The position numbers and the translations under genes are program-made. Positions 5,079-20,000 of a stretch of 20,000 nt of DNA are shown piece after piece. Numbering within the stretch: position 1 is the first letter of the stretch; every line of letters starts with the position of its first letter. The notes beneath the pieces were generated by a model. The model ran no database searches. It had not been told where the DNA came from and saw nothing but the letters and a program-made list of their open reading frames with translations. The stretch spans positions 154,927 through 174,926 of the forward strand of contig JAFGBS010000019.1 in assembly GCA_016933055.1 (NCBI GenBank), given 5' to 3'. This stretch comes from Promethearchaeota archaeon (GTDB taxonomy: Archaea; Asgardarchaeota; Lokiarchaeia; Sigyniarchaeales; Promethearchaeaceae).

Positions 5079-6606
5079 AACTTTTTCCTTTTACACTCGG
5101 ATGAGGTTCTTTTCCAAGTAGTTTTACTAACGTGGGTACGATATCCGTAGTTTTACAGTATTCTAGTTTCCTAGGAGTCAATAGTGTTTCACTGCCACCG
5201 ATTACTAAAGGAACGTGCATAGATTCACGTAGACCAATATCATGAGAATACACATGATCATTTTTTGTCTCCCCATGCTCGTAATTATAACACACTGTCC
5301 CTACCGTTGATACCATAATATCACATGAACGTGGGTTAATGAAATACCTCATTAATTGATCGGGAATCATGGGAAAATCTACCGAATATGTATACTTTAA
5401 CCATTCTTCTATCGTATGAAAATTTCCATCTAGCAGTTTCGACGCGTTGGAATCCTCAGAATATCGATATACATCCATATCTTCAAAACTGTATCTCGTT
5501 GTATCCCCATTATAATCAATTTGTGCATTGTGGATATTTCCATTCTCATCTTTCATACGGATATGAATAGTGCCATTCTCGGGGGTATTTTTGTTTCCCC
5601 GATAGTAGACATATTTTACTCCCTCAATCTCAAACATCATCTCAATTAAATTGATCTCCTCTTGGCTATTAGTAGGTTTAAAATGCTTCAATTCATCCAA
5701 TGTTGGATGTAGTTTCCAATTTTTATTTGTTCCTGGAAAATTGAAGAATCCTACTGATCCAAAAGAACAATCAAAGTCCCCCTTTCCCGTTTTTTTGCTG
5801 AAAGGAACCAGCCCTTTACTTTTTATAAACGGTTCTAAATCCTTGGCTTTTTCTGCTTTATAATTACCATGATCACTAGTAAAAACGATAATTGTATCAT
5901 CATAAATTCCTAATTTTTGTAATGCATCAATAACTTTTCCCACTTCTACATCTAAATCTAATACTGATTGTAAATATCGTTCGGAATCGAACCCATACTC
6001 ATGCATAAGGGAATCGGTGAGAAAATAAAGGGCAGTGACGGCTTTGGGTAATTTTGAATTTCCAAAAAATCGTTTAGGGTTTTTGAACACATCGATCAGA
6101 CGCTTTGTTACAATTTTATGAGAGTTTTCTGGTTTTTTCGATAACACGATAGCAAATAAGAAAAAAATTGCTGCGATGAACTTATTGGGAGGAAATACTT
6201 TTGTAACTCCTCTAGAGCAATATTGAACAATTGAATAGGAATTTCCCTCTCCAATTTGTTCAAACAGAGTTTTTACTTTATCTTCGATCTCATGAGTTTG
6301 TCGTAATGCATGTAATGCACTATAATGCCGGTATTGTGGGGGATTTGCTTCCCGATCAAACCAATGATATACAGGAATACCACTTCCCGATTTTGGATAA
6401 TATCCACTATAAGCTCCAGTCATTAAATTTGGTTGGGTGGGTAATGTAATTGAAGGATAAGATGTTACGCATTTATCGCAAATGATACCTTTATCTCCCA
6501 ATAGTTTCAAATTAGGAAGTTTTCCCTCATTATAAAGTCTCGAGAATAATCTTCCACTCACATCATCTGCAACCAGTAAAATCACATGTTTTGCAACTTT
6601 GTCCAT
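5068..6606 (-). CDS. Type I phosphodiesterase / nucleotide pyrophosphatase (alkaline phosphatase superfamily)
   Basis: HVILLVADDVSGRLF..GKLPNLKLLGDKGI; VTSYPSITLPTQPNLMTGAYSGYYP; DDTIIVFTSDHGNY; YSHDIGLRESMHVPLVIGG. Confidence 0.85.
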   Translation of the reverse strand: MDKVAKHVILLVADDVSGRLFSRLYNEGKLPNLKLLGDKGIICDKCVTSYPSITLPTQPNLMTGAYSGYYPKSGSGIPVYHWFDREANPPQYRHYSALHALRQTHEIEDKVKTLFEQIGEGNSYSIVQYCSRGVTKVFPPNKFIAAIFFLFAIVLSKKPENSHKIVTKRLIDVFKNPKRFFGNSKLPKAVTALYFLTDSLMHEYGFDSERYLQSVLDLDVEVGKVIDALQKLGIYDDTIIVFTSDHGNYKAEKAKDLEPFIKSKGLVPFSKKTGKGDFDCSFGSVGFFNFPGTNKNWKLHPTLDELKHFKPTNSQEEINLIEMMFEIEGVKYVYYRGNKNTPENGTIHIRMKDENGNIHNAQIDYNGDTTRYSFEDMDVYRYSEDSNASKLLDGNFHTIEEWLKYTYSVDFPMIPDQLMRYFINPRSCDIMVSTVGTVCYNYEHGETKNDHVYSHDIGLRESMHVPLVIGGSETLLTPRKLEYCKTTDIVPTLVKLLGKEPHPSVKGKSLVN

Positions 6607-9056
6607 ATATCACGACTAGTGCATTTTATTTTTAAATTATCCTTATGGATATTCCAAAATTTTTTTACTCTCTGAGGAAGATCTTCGGGAGTTTCAATAT
6701 CCCAATCCTTAGGCAGCACACTACGATAATAATTTGTGTGAAAGCGTTGTCCAATGAGTACTACAAATCCCCTATCCGTTTCAGACCGAAAAATTCTACC
6801 CGCAGCTTGGATTACACGAGTTAATCCCGGATTCCGATATGCAAATTCAAATCCTCGATAATACTGCTTTTGGAAGTATTCTTTAATGAGTTCTTGTTCA
6901 AAGCAATATTGGGGCAATCCTGGACTGATTATGAATACACCAATAGCCATATCTCCCGGATAATCCACACCTTCACTAAAAATACCACCGTGAACTCCTA
7001 AAAGTAGATATGATGTGGTTTGGGATCGTAGCTGGGATAGTATTTGCCTTCTTGCTTTTTCACTCATGCGTCTTTGTTGCACAATGACTTCGTTGGATGA
7101 CGGTAACTCCTGCAATTCTTTCAACACGCTGTATAAATAATGGAAACTCGGAAAAAATACCAAATAATTTCCCGATTGGCATCGAATCGAATCGTGGATA
7201 AGTTGGGCTATTGTATGATAGGATGATTCCCTTTGCATGTAGCGAGTAGAAACATAAGGAAAATCCATATATAATCGGTTTTCAAGGGGAAATGGGCTGG
7301 AATATTGCAAAATTTTTGTATCTTCGGGTAAACCCAGCATTTCTTTATAATATCCAACAGGATACAACGTAGCAGATTGCACAATTACGCTATGAAAACC
7401 TTTCATCTGTGTTTTCAAAAAATTCGCAGCGGATTTACAGTAGATTTTAATTCTCCCTTCTTGGGGGTAGATTAAAGGCTCGAATTCATCCAGATGCGTT
7501 TGTTCCAAGATTTGAAGGAAAAAATGAAGTTGTTTGACGAAAATAGTAAACAAATCCCCTGCTAAAGGTTCCATTTCGTAGTTTTGCACAAAATTACCTA
7601 AGTAAGAAACAAGTAGATTTTCAAATTCATCTAAAAATTTTGAGAAGTCGTTGAGATCCAGTGGCACCTTAGTGACTCTTAATAAGGGATTTTCTAGTGA
7701 AGATTTAATGGTTTGAATGTATTTCATCAGATCTTGAAGTTTAGCAACTATTTCAGTTCTCAAATCTGCTGAAATTGCTTGATTTTGAATATATCCAACT
7801 AATTCAGTTAAAAATTCTTCTGAAATCTCTGGAGAATAATATTCTCGTGCACGCTCGGGTAGGTTATGCGCCTCATCAATAATGCATATACAATCCTTGT
7901 ACTTTCCTTTGAAAAATCGCTGTAATTTAATAATCGGACTAAATACATAATTATAATCCCCCACAATTACGTCACAAAATAATGAGCAATCTAATGCGAG
8001 TTCAAATGGACAAATTTTGTGTTCTTTTGCCTTTTTTTTGACATATTTAGAATTAATTACTTTATTTTTTAGAATAGACTTCAAAATGTCTTCATAATTT
8101 GCGGGATAAGACTGAGCGTATTTACATAACGCAGGATCGCATGCGTAGGTAGTATTTAAGCACATTTTTTCCTTTGCAGTTAAAATTATCGAGTTGAATT
8201 TTCCTTTATTCCGAGCAAACAACCTCAAGGTATCTTCATAAATTTTCTGTTGAGTTGTTTTCGAGGTAACCACAAATAATCGCTTATTTTCATCAATTGT
8301 ATACCGTAAGGCGGGAAATAGCGTTCCTACTGTTTTTCCAAGTCCTGAGGGTGCCAATAGCATGAGATTCCCGTGATCATTTAACACATTCTCACATATA
8401 TGAATGATTTCATCTTGATGCGGTCGAATTGTTTCAAATGGAAAATTTATTGAGTGTGCTCGTTGTTGTTGCTTTTTTTCATGTTTTTTTGTCTCTGAAA
8501 TAGTAGTGAGTACATTTTTGCATTTTTCGTCTAAGATTTCATAGATATTTTTAAATTGGATGGAGTGGATTGTTTCTTCTTGGGAAAACACATCAATTAC
8601 TACCAACTTACATTGTATTTTTTTATCAGGGTAAGTTTCTTTGAAATAATGGGCATAAAAAAGAAGCTGCAGTTGATATAATTGTCCTGCTTCAGAATTT
8701 AAAGTAAAATCTTTCAGATTATTCACTGATTTAATTTCTTCTACTGTGATTACATTACCCGAGATCTGAACAAGGTCGGTCCTTCCAGTTATAACAAATT
8801 TCCATCTGCCAATCTTCCGAAGTATATTCACTCGATATTCGGATTTCACCGAAACTCTGGTATTTTTTGTTTGGGTTTTTGCTAAGTTCTGATAATCAGA
8901 ATGAATTTCCATTCCTTTATTCGTTCGTAAGTAGAATGGTAAACTGGAGGAACTAAAATTCGAAGATTGAGGGTAAATGAGTTCCCGAATGGAAATTTTG
9001 ATTTGATGATTTATAGAATCAATTTTCAACCTATCCACACCACGATATTTATTCAC
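6582..9056 (-). CDS. XPD/Rad3/DinG-family superfamily 2 helicase with N-terminal PD-(D/E)XK nuclease-like domain
   Basis: N-terminus: GRTDLVQISGNVITVEEIKS...QLYQLQLLFYAHYF (PD-(D/E)XK plus Q-rich helix). Helicase: APSGLGKTVGTLFPAL (Walker A), Cys-containing insertion (C...C.YA...CPFELALDC), IIDEAHNLPERA (DEAH), VQAAGRIFRSETDRGFVVLI (motif VI). The gene overlaps the downstream phosphodiesterase gene by 25 nt. Confidence 0.85.
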   Translation of the reverse strand: MNKYRGVDRLKIDSINHQIKISIRELIYPQSSNFSSSSLPFYLRTNKGMEIHSDYQNLAKTQTKNTRVSVKSEYRVNILRKIGRWKFVITGRTDLVQISGNVITVEEIKSVNNLKDFTLNSEAGQLYQLQLLFYAHYFKETYPDKKIQCKLVVIDVFSQEETIHSIQFKNIYEILDEKCKNVLTTISETKKHEKKQQQRAHSINFPFETIRPHQDEIIHICENVLNDHGNLMLLAPSGLGKTVGTLFPALRYTIDENKRLFVVTSKTTQQKIYEDTLRLFARNKGKFNSIILTAKEKMCLNTTYACDPALCKYAQSYPANYEDILKSILKNKVINSKYVKKKAKEHKICPFELALDCSLFCDVIVGDYNYVFSPIIKLQRFFKGKYKDCICIIDEAHNLPERAREYYSPEISEEFLTELVGYIQNQAISADLRTEIVAKLQDLMKYIQTIKSSLENPLLRVTKVPLDLNDFSKFLDEFENLLVSYLGNFVQNYEMEPLAGDLFTIFVKQLHFFLQILEQTHLDEFEPLIYPQEGRIKIYCKSAANFLKTQMKGFHSVIVQSATLYPVGYYKEMLGLPEDTKILQYSSPFPLENRLYMDFPYVSTRYMQRESSYHTIAQLIHDSIRCQSGNYLVFFPSFHYLYSVLKELQELPSSNEVIVQQRRMSEKARRQILSQLRSQTTSYLLLGVHGGIFSEGVDYPGDMAIGVFIISPGLPQYCFEQELIKEYFQKQYYRGFEFAYRNPGLTRVIQAAGRIFRSETDRGFVVLIGQRFHTNYYRSVLPKDWDIETPEDLPQRVKKFWNIHKDNLKIKCTSRDIWTKLQNM

Positions 9057-9140: not shown

Positions 9141-9213
9141 AGCTCCCGGAGGGATTCGAACCCTCGACCTGCTGATTACAAGTCAGCTGCTATAGCCGCT
9201 AAGCCACGGAAGC
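9141..9213 (-). tRNA. tRNA-Thr (anticodon TGT)
   Basis: Minus strand: GCTTCCGTGGCTTAGCGGCTATAGCAGCTGACTTGTAATCAGCAGGTCGAGGGTTCGAATCCCTCCGGGAGCT. Acceptor stem GCTTCCG/CGGGAGC, anticodon arm GCTGA-CTTGTAA-TCAGC, T-arm with GGTTCGAATCC, discriminator U. CCA is not encoded. Confidence 0.96.
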
Positions 9214-14353: not shown

Positions 14354-14371
14354 AGGAAAAGAAGAAAGAAA
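14354..14371 (-). terminator. Pyrimidine/U-rich 3' tail of the 5S gene
   Basis: Immediately downstream of the 5S 3' end the minus strand reads TTTCTTTCTTCTTTTCCTTTC, consistent with archaeal U-tract termination. Confidence 0.45.
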
Positions 14372-14490
14372 GGCTACATTTTGAAGTTTCCCACTATTTA
14401 GTAATAGCAGTACTTACATCAACCCCCTTGAGCTTAATTACTCTGTTCGGAATGGGAAGAGATGTTTCCTCAAGGAGTATGAACGTAGCC
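14372..14490 (-). rRNA. rrf: 5S ribosomal RNA (complete, 119 nt)
   Basis: Minus strand: GGCTACGTTCATACTCCTTGAGGAAACATCTCTTCCCATTCCGAACAGAGTAATTAAGCTCAAGGGGGTTGATGTAAGTACTGCTATTACTAAATAGTGGGAAACTTCAAAATGTAGCC. Terminal helix GGCTACGTT/AATGTAGCC (one G-U), universal CCCAUUCCGAAC loop C, UUAAG, and AGUACUG in loop E. Confidence 0.95.
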
Positions 14491-17391: not shown

Positions 17392-18861
17392 ATGAAAAAG
17401 AATACTCGCCTTACTATATTATCGATTTTTCTAACATTGATGATAGGAATCGTGCCTTTTGTTTTTTTGATTAAACCAGCAGGGGCAAATAATGATAGAC
17501 TTTATTCTCCTGATGGAAAAGGATACATTGAAGAAATTCCCGAATACCCGGGGAAATACAGAATGCATTTAGAGGGAACTCCATATCAAATGGGAGAACA
17601 ACAAGGTTATCTCGGAGCCCGTAGTGTCAGTCGTCTTGCATCAGAGGATTGGTTTAAAAATATCGTGACCGGTTTATTAGATGCCCCCGACTTTATTTTA
17701 GACATAATTTTAGGAGATATTTTGGATTACAATCGTCTGGTAAATGTTGTGGGTAGTGTTGTGGATTATTCTATACTGCAAGCTGTGAAGTATGTTTCGG
17801 GAGATAGTATTGATACTATGTTGGACAAACTTCTTGTATTATGTCGCGCTCTGGTTGCACATAACATGATATATGTTCCAGAAGAGTTTCTAACAGAATG
17901 CCAAGGTGTCGCAGATGGTGCTAATACCGCTGGATACGATGATGTGACATATGAGGATGTTCTATTATTAAATATGGGAATGGATGCTCTTTTGGCACTA
18001 GCCTATCCCGTTGTAGAACCTTGGCTGTTTTGGATGGACTTATTCTCCTTCCTATCCTGTAGTGGTTATGTTGTAAAAGGATATGGTACAGTTGGCGGTC
18101 ATACAATTATGGGACGACACTGGCAGTTCTCCAGTTACGTTCTATTTGAAGAACTGATGATGATCGAATACAACCCAATAAGTGGAAATAGGTTCATTTC
18201 AACATCTGCTCCAGGATTCGTAGGATTGACAAGTGCAATGAATGATCAAGGAATAGGAATCGGTCAAGACATGGTACCTGCCCAAGACTGCGATCCAGCC
18301 AATTACGGGATGGGGACACTATTCACAGCTCGTTATGTTGCACAACATTGTGATCAATATTCGGAAGCAATTAATTTCATTACATCTTCTGTTCATGGAT
18401 GTTCATGGATTTATGGAATTGGAGATGGACGAAATGGAGAAACTGGTGGATGTGCCTTAGAGATATCAGATAATTATTATCGAGTTCGGGATATGAGATA
18501 TACTCGACCGTGGTGGGCTATCTTCTCATATGATACAATCGAAAAGAAAAATGATTTAGTGACGTGGACGAATCATTACATTTACGTACGGATGAATGAC
18601 CTAGCTGACTCGACTGCTATTGATGATTCGAAGAACAGATATAGTTGGCTAACGAATCTGGCATTAAATATGTATGGAACTATAGATCTACATAGTGGAG
18701 CAACATTAATTGACTATCTGCATCCTCCTAATTATAACTATTATACGGGCGGACCCGATATGCCGGTAGGCGCTTGCCTTACCGCTTGGGATCTCACCAC
18801 ATTGCAAGCTAAGGCATTATTTGGTCTGTACAGTGATCAGTGGGTTATTGTGACTTTTTAA
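17392..18861 (+). CDS. Secreted C45-family / phospholipase B-like Ntn hydrolase
   Basis: N-terminal signal/TM LTILSIFLTLMIGIVPFVFLI; LEGTPYQMGEQQGYLGA; CQGVADGANTAG; candidate nucleophile in LSCSGYVVKG; TVGGHTIMGRHWQF; SAPGFVGLTSAMNDQGIGIG, which is typical of acyl-CoA:6-APA acyltransferase/C45-like proteins. Confidence 0.78.
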   Translation: MKKNTRLTILSIFLTLMIGIVPFVFLIKPAGANNDRLYSPDGKGYIEEIPEYPGKYRMHLEGTPYQMGEQQGYLGARSVSRLASEDWFKNIVTGLLDAPDFILDIILGDILDYNRLVNVVGSVVDYSILQAVKYVSGDSIDTMLDKLLVLCRALVAHNMIYVPEEFLTECQGVADGANTAGYDDVTYEDVLLLNMGMDALLALAYPVVEPWLFWMDLFSFLSCSGYVVKGYGTVGGHTIMGRHWQFSSYVLFEELMMIEYNPISGNRFISTSAPGFVGLTSAMNDQGIGIGQDMVPAQDCDPANYGMGTLFTARYVAQHCDQYSEAINFITSSVHGCSWIYGIGDGRNGETGGCALEISDNYYRVRDMRYTRPWWAIFSYDTIEKKNDLVTWTNHYIYVRMNDLADSTAIDDSKNRYSWLTNLALNMYGTIDLHSGATLIDYLHPPNYNYYTGGPDMPVGACLTAWDLTTLQAKALFGLYSDQWVIVTF

Positions 18862-18906: not shown

Positions 18907-18953
18907 CAATCTTAAATCGTAAAATTAAAAATAGACCGCTTTTTAGAAATCTT

Positions 18954-18958
18954 GGTGA
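18954..18958 (+). promoter_or_regulatory. Shine-Dalgarno motif GGTGA for eS30
   Basis: GGTGA with a 6-nt spacer to the ATT codon at 18965. The same GGTGA is seen upstream of the fwdB and alcohol dehydrogenase genes. Confidence 0.65.
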
Positions 18959-18964
18959 CATAAA

Positions 18965-19180
18965 ATTCCAGGTTCGCATGGTTCACTTACAAAAGCAGGA
19001 AAAGTTCGGGGACAAACCCCTCAAGTACCTAAAACAGGCGTCAATTCTAAGAAGAAGAACATCCCACGGGTACGAAATCGAAACAATTACATAAAACGCA
19101 TAGTAAAGCATAAGTATGCTGGTCAAGCTACCAGTATGGGTGCTCAAAAGCATAATCGGAAGGTATCCGTAAGTAGATAA
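18965..19180 (+). CDS. rps30e: 30S ribosomal protein S30e (eS30), apparent ATT start codon
   Basis: Not in the ORF track. The frame reads (ATT)[70 protein letters not shown], matching the eS30 pattern ([14 protein letters not shown]...PRVRNRxNY). There are 72 codons including TAA. Confidence 0.9.
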
Positions 19181-19234
19181 TCCTTTTCTCATTTTTCCTG
19201 TAATTTCTAATTTATGATTGCGTTTTAGAAAAAC

Positions 19235-19269: not shown

Positions 19270-20000
19270 ATGAGCGATAGCATGCAATTGCAAATTGATA
19301 CATCGAATATTATACGCCAAATAGCCTCTAAACTGCAACTGCGCCCTACTTATATATCCAATGCCATTAGCCTAATGGCAGAAGGGGGTACCGTCCCATT
19401 CATTGCACGATACCGCAAGGAACAAACGGGTGCTATGACTGAAAATGAACTTCGTGAAATCAAAGACTCTTATGAGGATTCTTATAAGCGAGAGGAACTA
19501 CGAATCCAAGTTCTAAAATCCATTCATCTGCAGGACAAGCTCACTCCAGAACTCAAGCAGAAAATCCTTACCGCAAAAACTCTTACAGAAATAGAGGATT
19601 TATACCTCCCGTACAAACCTAAGAGAAAAACATTAGCCACGAAAGCTTTAGAGAAGGGGTTAGGTCCTCTAGCTGAAATTATACGAGAAGAGCGACTTGA
19701 TGGGGACCGGGAGGAAATCTTAAATCGTTTTGTGAATGAGAAAAAAGGAGTGAAAGACACCAAGGAAGCCTTGAAAGGTGCTATCGATATTATTGCAGAA
19801 GATATTGGAAACCATGCAGATTTTCGTAAATACGTTAGGGAAGTGTGCTTTGAACGCTCCACCATAATTTCTAAAGTCGTTAAAAAATATGAACATCTTT
19901 TAAAGGAGAAACAAGAAAAAGAAGAAGATGCTGATGCAGCGGTTCTTCAAGAAATGATCCAGAAACGAGATGAATTAGAACGGCAAGGTGAAAAGGGTGA
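19270..20000 (+). CDS. tex: Tex-like RNA-binding transcription accessory protein (N-terminal part, truncated by window end)
   Basis: MSDSMQLQIDTSNIIRQIASKLQLRPTYISNAISLMAEGGTVPFIARYRKEQTGAMTENELREI...LTEIEDLYLPYKPKRKTLATKALEKGLGPLAEII matches the Tex N-terminus. The frame is open to 20000. Confidence 0.9.
   Translation, partial: MSDSMQLQIDTSNIIRQIASKLQLRPTYISNAISLMAEGGTVPFIARYRKEQTGAMTENELREIKDSYEDSYKREELRIQVLKSIHLQDKLTPELKQKILTAKTLTEIEDLYLPYKPKRKTLATKALEKGLGPLAEIIREERLDGDREEILNRFVNEKKGVKDTKEALKGAIDIIAEDIGNHADFRKYVREVCFERSTIISKVVKKYEHLLKEKQEKEEDADAAVLQEMIQKRDELERQGEKG

Follow-up and report, generated by a model that had tools for sequence, protein, structure and literature searches.

At which codon does translation of an archaeal eS30 gene begin when the triplet in front of the conserved N terminus is ATT? 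The question is raised by one end of a 20,000-nucleotide stretch of Promethearchaeota DNA (hereafter the window), where a preliminary description had reported an intact frame for ribosomal protein eS30, preceded immediately by ATT and by a Shine-Dalgarno (SD) motif. We propose that this is a functional, monocistronic lokiarchaeal eS30 gene that uses SD-guided initiation at AUU, and that this start is an inherited trait specific to the gene and the lineage. On the comparative sequence evidence below, we consider this reading highly probable.

Translation of positions 18956–19180 (+) bore out the earlier account of the frame. The coding sequence at 18965–19180 (+) consists of a 71-codon Ribosomal_S30 ORF and a TAA stop (19178–19180), read directly from the DNA, and the gene is indeed missing from the mechanical ORF list of the window. 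The frame runs TGA (18956–18958), CAT, AAA, ATT (18965–18967), CCA, GGT, TCG, CAT, GGT, and the protein ends in ...SVSR. The TGA, which lies within the SD motif, rules out an in-frame start further upstream and leaves only CAT, AAA and ATT ahead of the conserved N terminus. Downstream, the first canonical start codon to be met in the frame is an ATG at codon 58 (19136–19138), with no ATG, GTG or TTG before it, as the preliminary description had stated. Leu8 is encoded by CTT (18986–18988), and none of the five Val codons is GTG (they are GTT, GTA or GTC). A start at codon 58 would leave only 14 residues, with the whole domain lost. All of the other long ORFs in the window (16/16) have canonical start candidates, and the GC content of the window is 33–40%.

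The predicted protein matches Pfam PF04758 (Ribosomal_S30) at 48.9 bits, compared with a gathering cut-off of 27 (E = 7.5e-13; profile positions 3–52 of 58). Its nearest solved structure is eS30 from Saccharolobus solfataricus (PDB: 9fhl chain e, 9fhl_e; E = 7.2e-12), and in the PDB comparison its N-terminal tail with His (xxHGSLxxAGKV) aligns to 9fhl_e and to eukaryotic eS30 chains. The eS30 family is shared by TACK archaea, Asgard archaea and eukaryotes (PMC11698992), and the profile match, the tail and this taxonomic range together place the window protein in it. The TACK proteins (rps30e), such as that of S. solfataricus, have the same N-terminal tail (M-P-x-), with Pro2 as the expected mature N terminus; the Loki-type proteins differ from them by a TGVN insertion and a longer C terminus. 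The PDB matches also include the eukaryotic FUBI-eS30 (FAU) fusion, in which an eS30 N terminus that reaches the decoding centre is likewise made in an unusual way. This likeness is thematic only because the Loki protein has no ubiquitin-like domain, and a FUBI-like upstream fusion was rejected given the TGA two codons upstream.

The window protein is 100% identical to P0001, which is NCBI MBN2156642.1 ([quoted passage not shown], 71 aa; contig of 196.7 kb), and its best database matches are named Lokiarchaeota or Promethearchaeota S30e. MBN2156642.1 starts with M at the ATT; the NCBI annotation therefore already sets this start. ATT-annotated starts also occur in MFX0017271.1, MFX1276262.1, MFX1357122.1, MFX1445597.1 and TFF97691.1, giving at least six NCBI records together with MBN2156642.1. 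The AUU gene call is thus already in GenBank by homology, and what is new here is its pattern of recurrence and the co-adaptation of the SD in Lokiarchaeia.

Start codons and Shine-Dalgarno pairing in related eS30 genes

The codon before PGSHGS was read in each of 160–163 related loci, which were collected from scans of species-representative genomes and from JGI metagenomes. Of 49 unique Loki-type eS30 genes, 15 have a non-canonical codon at the Met position, although one of the two locus search patterns contained Met (MPGSHG), so the frequencies are approximate and the ATT share is probably underestimated. The 15 comprise 13 ATT loci (the window, L002, L007, L009, L011, L015, L016, L021, L027, L036, L088, L098 and L099), one with ATC (L092) and one with GTC (L102); L036 is a variant that reads ATT-TCT-CCT. 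Approximately two-thirds of the Loki-type genes use ATG at this codon. No non-canonical start codon was found among 107 other archaeal eS30 genes, 55 from other Asgard archaea (with the record labels Thor-, Hermod-, Odin-, Hel-, Heimdall-, Sigyn-, Jord- and Freyarchaeota) and 52 from TACK archaea (0/107; Fisher 5e-9 versus Loki-type). The TACK genes sampled all start with ATG, TTG or GTG (52/52).

The preliminary description had named an ordinary start codon in related genomes, combined with low coverage in this assembly, as evidence against AUU initiation, and on this point the comparison gave a divided answer. ATT is present in 13 Loki-type loci, but the closest relative (P0002/L001; 91% identity) has ATG in the context GTGAT-TATAAT-ATG-CCA. 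Since ATT is retained in many other lineages, the ATG of this relative does not refute the AUU reading. The sister lineage P0005 (L002/L003; 83% identity) reads GGTGA-AAAAAAA-ATT-CCA in two independent assemblies (ENA and Logan), and the same ATT is found in five, three and two independently assembled MAGs of three further species (ten assemblies). When start-codon state was placed on an NJ tree of the 66–70 aa protein, 11 changes were needed for 15 tips, compared with 13.1 for shuffled labels (P = 0.11). Since the changes on this weak protein tree are close to those of random labels, the number of independent ATT origins cannot be stated. As judged from these gene sequences, ATT is an inherited trait specific to eS30 and to the Lokiarchaeia lineage, and it recurs in approximately one-third of Loki-type genes.

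One MAG in the set, CAYUTF01 (binchicken_co196_315), carries two eS30 genes on two contigs (L007 and L021; dN 0.25), both with ATT; the two are either a true paralogue pair or the product of a mixed bin.

The GGTGA motif of the preliminary description was located at 18954–18958 (+), separated from the ATT by the 6-nt spacer CATAAA. It is complementary to GAUCACCUCCU, which we take to be the archaeal 16S 3′ end (anti-SD), and the predicted duplex has an energy of -7.2 kcal/mol. The same calculation was made for every locus, with the 22 nt that precede the start folded against GAUCACCUCCU; all energies thus refer to an assumed archaeal anti-SD and not to one taken from a Loki 16S gene. The median SD duplex energy was -9.7 kcal/mol for loci with non-canonical starts versus -4.7 kcal/mol for canonical loci (Mann-Whitney p = 6e-6, the loci not being phylogenetically independent), and the duplex ended 3–6 nt from the start in the former versus mostly 7–12 nt in the latter. 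Most ATT loci share the upstream consensus [G]GnTGAT-N5/6-ATT, and many ATG loci have the same SD motif 9 nt from the ATG, or none. The ATG relatives that lie near ATT loci on the tree (L001, L019, L020, L025 and L089) mostly have weaker SDs. In these genes a strong SD at a suitable position appears to make up for a weak initiator codon, and the stronger predicted SD at a fixed 5-nt spacing in ATT loci indicates co-adaptation. The initiation region of the window forms less stable folds than its shuffled counterparts (z = +1.13) and is predicted to be unstructured; no Rfam family was found near the eS30 gene in the window.

The two loci with other non-canonical codons also have very strong SDs: L102:1500–1511 (GTC) carries GGGGTGAT and L092:441–452 (ATC) carries GGGGTGAG, at -13.6 and -10.9 kcal/mol, respectively. 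Two positions of the L102 GTC do not match AUG, and the codon may result from a read error, the contig being short.

Alternative readings of the ATT codon

Most ATT loci, the window among them, have an in-frame stop one or two codons upstream of the ATT, often the TGA of the SD itself. Downstream, codons 2–7 encode a protein sequence (PGSHGS) that is invariant across all ATT loci, with codons that vary synonymously (CCA/CCT/CCC; GGT/GGA/GGG/GGC; TCA/TCG/TCT/AGT/AGC; CAT/CAC), which implies that these codons are translated and under selection. The N-terminal tail as a whole (codons 2–14; 18968–19006 (+) in the window) is invariant in alignment A1 and likewise shows synonymous substitutions among ATT loci, indicative of translation. 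Together, the upstream stops and the synonymous changes in codons 2–7 pin the start to the ATT, the codon that aligns with the Met codon of the orthologues. It is consequently very improbable that translation starts elsewhere, whether further upstream, at a canonical codon inside the gene (which would give a truncated eS30) or by coupling to the upstream ORF. Such a start would be consistent with L002, the exception among the ATT loci, where an in-frame GTG lies six codons upstream of the ATT, and with JGI calls that in some ATT lineages begin at codon 8, where a TTG stands; this position holds TTG or ATG in 4/15 non-canonical versus 1/34 canonical loci (Fisher p = 0.026). The window has a TGA two codons before the ATT, CTT at codon 8 and no canonical codon ahead of number 58, and the upstream gene ends 100 nt before eS30; a start within the tail is at odds with the constancy of PGSHGS, whose codons vary synonymously. 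The ATT could also stem from an error in sequencing or assembly, or the locus could be a decaying pseudogene: the window's own ATT is known from one assembly (a cluster of 1), and its nearest relative has ATG. This reading is effectively refuted, and its probability is negligible, given that the sister lineage and ten further assemblies of three other species independently have ATT and that the genes are under purifying selection. The frame is intact, the domain is conserved, and dN/dS for ATT-ATT pairs is approximately 0.1 or lower (window-L002, 0.095; L027-L098, 0.046; L011-L015, 0.050), with dS at 1 or above. Values of 0.05–0.1 point to strong purifying selection on genes that are predicted to be functional and that have retained ATT while synonymous sites became saturated. 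An intact eS30 initiating at ATT behind an SD, the central claim of the preliminary description, is thus supported by dN/dS, by synonymous codons 2–7, by the upstream stops, by SD strength and by independent assemblies.

A less specific explanation is that the codon reflects neutral or mutational drift, in which a change from ATG to ATT is tolerated in AT-rich Lokiarchaeia behind an existing strong SD and initiation in the clade is generally permissive; the ATT would then have no function and would not be particular to eS30. The genomes have 33–40% GC, the start toggles between close relatives (ATT in the window and ATG in L001), and near-cognate initiation sites were seen in Haloferax ribosome profiling (PMC7261190), all of which would fit. 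Against it, in the neighbourhoods of four ATT species (L164, L169, L172 and L174) a non-canonical start was found in eS30 in 4/4 cases versus 0/52 annotated neighbour genes (Fisher 2.7e-6), a control taken from the gene tables of NCBI MAG records, in which the neighbours start with ATG, TTG or GTG according to annotation pipelines that rarely call non-canonical starts. Control N termini were also sought in the 1.5-kb flanks of the 49 Loki-type loci, which yielded only one sizeable family (membrane plus zinc-ribbon), whose N termini were too variable for a start column to be placed. The choice of codon is also not what drift would predict. When the identical L002/L003 assemblies are counted separately, the Ile-type starts comprise 14 ATT, one ATC and no ATA, whereas ATT makes up 50% of Ile codons in window genes and ATC and ATA approximately 25% each (excess of ATT at the start position, P = 5e-4). 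By this measure of codon usage, the ATT bias at the start position is unlike that of a sense Ile codon. Drift is also difficult to reconcile with the persistence of ATT clades over dS of at least 1 and with the SD, which is stronger and at a fixed 5-nt spacing in ATT loci, as expected from co-adaptation. We therefore regard drift as improbable, and prefer SD-guided AUU initiation as an inherited property of lokiarchaeal eS30.

Two further candidates were rejected. An Ile sense codon within a longer ORF disagrees with the upstream stops and with the strong preference for ATT over ATA and ATC, and transcriptional slippage in the A-run before the ATT cannot create AUG.

The codon-8 starts deserve mention in their own right. 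In L009, L021, L027 and L098, the conserved Leu8 position holds TTG, or ATG (encoding Met), either of which is a canonical start. A start there could be a back-up that would give eS30 without the N-terminal tail, and its presence in some ATT lineages explains the 60–61 aa "LTKAGKV..." calls in JGI.

Proposed AUU initiation and its possible regulation

If eS30 is initiated at AUU as proposed, the SD:anti-SD duplex would set the AUU (18965–18967) in the P site, and Met-tRNAi would read it near-cognately, as at bacterial infC. Excision of Met would then be expected to make Pro the N-terminal residue, in line with other archaeal eS30 proteins, for which Pro2 is the expected mature N terminus (PMC11698992). 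The strong SD approximately 5 nt upstream would offset the weakness of AUU; in the alternative state in many Lokiarchaeia, AUG is paired with an SD that is weak or lies further away. AUG, GUG and UUG are the only archaeal start codons named in reviews (PMC7531240), and the near-cognate sites seen by ribosome profiling of Haloferax were set aside in that study (PMC7261190). Our literature search found no paper on an AUU/ATT start of eS30/S30e or on such a start in Asgard archaea.

The closest working analogue of the eS30 AUU is that of bacterial infC, which encodes IF3. As a gene of the translation machinery, infC likewise has a conserved AUU start behind a functional SD, with E. coli pcnB as a further bacterial example of AUU, and the eS30 genes resemble infC in their predicted features: the AUU is at the homologous position, an alternative start is lacking, the SD is suitably spaced and the codon is conserved, although not universally. 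In each domain AUU is rejected by a fidelity factor, IF3 in bacteria and aIF1 in archaea (PMC4705826). The two systems differ in that they belong to different domains of life with different fidelity factors, and in that eS30 is a ribosomal protein, whereas the infC product is the fidelity factor itself. The eS30 AUU is also found in only about one-third of Loki-type genes, where it alternates with AUG, and the likeness is at the level of sequence. Another comparison is offered by the poor-context AUG of eukaryotic eIF1/SUI1, where a component of translation also reports initiation stringency through a suboptimal site (PMC4705826). That autoregulation depends on scanning and Kozak context, whereas eS30 has an SD and an AUU, and any feedback is hypothetical.

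By analogy with infC, a regulatory role for the eS30 AUU, as suggested in the preliminary description, is a plausible hypothesis. One form that it might take, which we put forward tentatively, is a feedback in which the AUU is suppressed by aIF1/aIF1A proofreading on the complete 30S subunit and eS30 synthesis rises when stringency falls. Stringency might fall, for example, on 30S subunits without eS30, whose tail lies at the A site where aIF1A binds. Such a feedback would supplement SD-guided AUU initiation and is compatible with it. Several published observations are in keeping with such a loop. aIF1 discriminates against AUU on Sulfolobus 30S subunits, causing the complexes to reject it (PMC4705826); the N-terminal tail of S. 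solfataricus eS30 contacts h44 next to the A site, and the eukaryotic tail touches eIF1A (PMC11698992); and yeast eS30 influences the acceptance of near-cognate tRNA (bioRxiv 10.1101/2023.06.19.543857). The gene specificity described above (4/4 eS30 genes versus 0/52 neighbours) would also fit, as would the persistence of ATT over saturated synonymous divergence when a single T-to-G change restores ATG. Against it, AUG or UUG suffices as the eS30 start in approximately two-thirds of Loki-type genes and in every other archaeon, which suggests that the loop is dispensable, and the frequent flips of start-codon state, near those of random labels, fit interchangeable solutions better than an essential circuit. 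It is accordingly rather doubtful, on analogy, that the eS30 AUU acts as a fidelity- or assembly-sensing switch, through which eS30-less subunits or low aIF1/aIF1A stringency would initiate at AUU more often and restore eS30. [quoted passage not shown]

The AUU of eS30 would rank among the few conserved AUU initiators documented in Archaea, in a gene whose product belongs to the decoding centre and is confined to TACK archaea, Asgard archaea and eukaryotes. The two states found in Lokiarchaeia, AUU with a strong, close SD and AUG with a weak, distant one, amount to a natural experiment on the trade-off between SD and start codon in Asgard translation, and they provide a testable hypothesis linking eS30, aIF1/aIF1A and initiation fidelity. 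In practical terms, gene callers that accept only ATG, GTG and TTG will miss or truncate eS30 in approximately one-third of Lokiarchaeia, with possible false absences in ribosomal-protein inventories. The finding is of interest to specialists in archaeal translation and in the translation machinery at the origin of eukaryotes.

Transcript context and neighbouring genes

A candidate archaeal promoter, the BRE/TATA-like sequence CGTAAAATTAAAAATAG, lies at 18917–18933 (+), and a similar sequence, CGCAAAWTTWTTWAT, is found upstream of eS30 in L001, L002, L004, L005 and L084. Counted from the window ATT, CGCAAAWTTWTT occupies -48 to -32. Use of this promoter would place the transcription start near 18953 and the SD at the mRNA's 5′ end. 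In lineages with ATT and with ATG alike (for example, L009, L016, L023 and L008), a conserved TTTAAGAGTTT element (TTTAAGA) is located approximately 62 nt upstream of eS30 at a near-constant distance; the subclade of the window carries CGYAAAWTTWTTWAT at 18917–18933 in its place. The TTTAAGAGTTT element, probably the TATA box of eS30, helps to predict the 5′ UTR. Given the usual archaeal distance from TATA box to transcription start, the predicted leader contains the SD, and in the window it would be approximately 11–13 nt long and begin at GGTGA. AT-rich, TATA-like tracts are common at several distances from the eS30 start, and a leaderless mRNA is also compatible with them. After the stop codon, the T-rich tract tccttttctcatttttcct at 19181–19199 (+) is a possible archaeal terminator. 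A scan for sigma-70 promoters and terminators was uninformative, the host being an archaeon.

The upstream gene is an AAT/C45-like ORF that ends at 18861, approximately 100 nt before eS30. Downstream lies a Tex-like gene with its ATG at 19270, and the order eS30-Tex is also found in L001 and L002. Tex is the prokaryotic relative of eukaryotic Spt6. The gene occupies 19270–20000 (+) of the window and is full-length in the relatives (L001:412–3045 and L002:3324–5963), where it encodes Tex_N, YqgF, HHH and S1 domains in approximately 877 aa. The TATA-like element aaaaaYctatttaag is conserved approximately 35 nt before the Tex ATG in the window, L001 and L002, which suggests that the predicted Tex transcript is leaderless or has a very short leader.

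A divergent eS30-like ORF was detected on a metagenome contig (Ga0315314_1007703; L139:1450–1668 (+)), with a Pfam score of 35.6 bits, above the threshold. Its N terminus carries a basic extension of 18 residues (MGRERETRQSTRKKGG-KGTHGSTTKAGKV), and the archaeal Pro2 is absent. The ORF lies among closely packed small ORFs of Cys-rich or zinc-ribbon type, all on the same strand, an arrangement of viral or mobile appearance, and it may be a virus-encoded eS30.

Elsewhere in the window, a 5S rRNA gene (14371–14490 (-); 65.5 bits) is isolated from any 16S or 23S gene and is flanked by a C25-peptidase-like gene and a saccharopine-dehydrogenase-like gene, and a single tRNA-Thr(TGT) gene is found at 9141–9213 (-). 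The ORF at 6582–9056 (-) encodes an 824-aa XPD/Rad3-type helicase (DEAD_2, Helicase_C_2) with a weak N-terminal match to a PD-(D/E)XK nuclease (E = 1.3e-3), which suggests a nuclease-helicase fusion.
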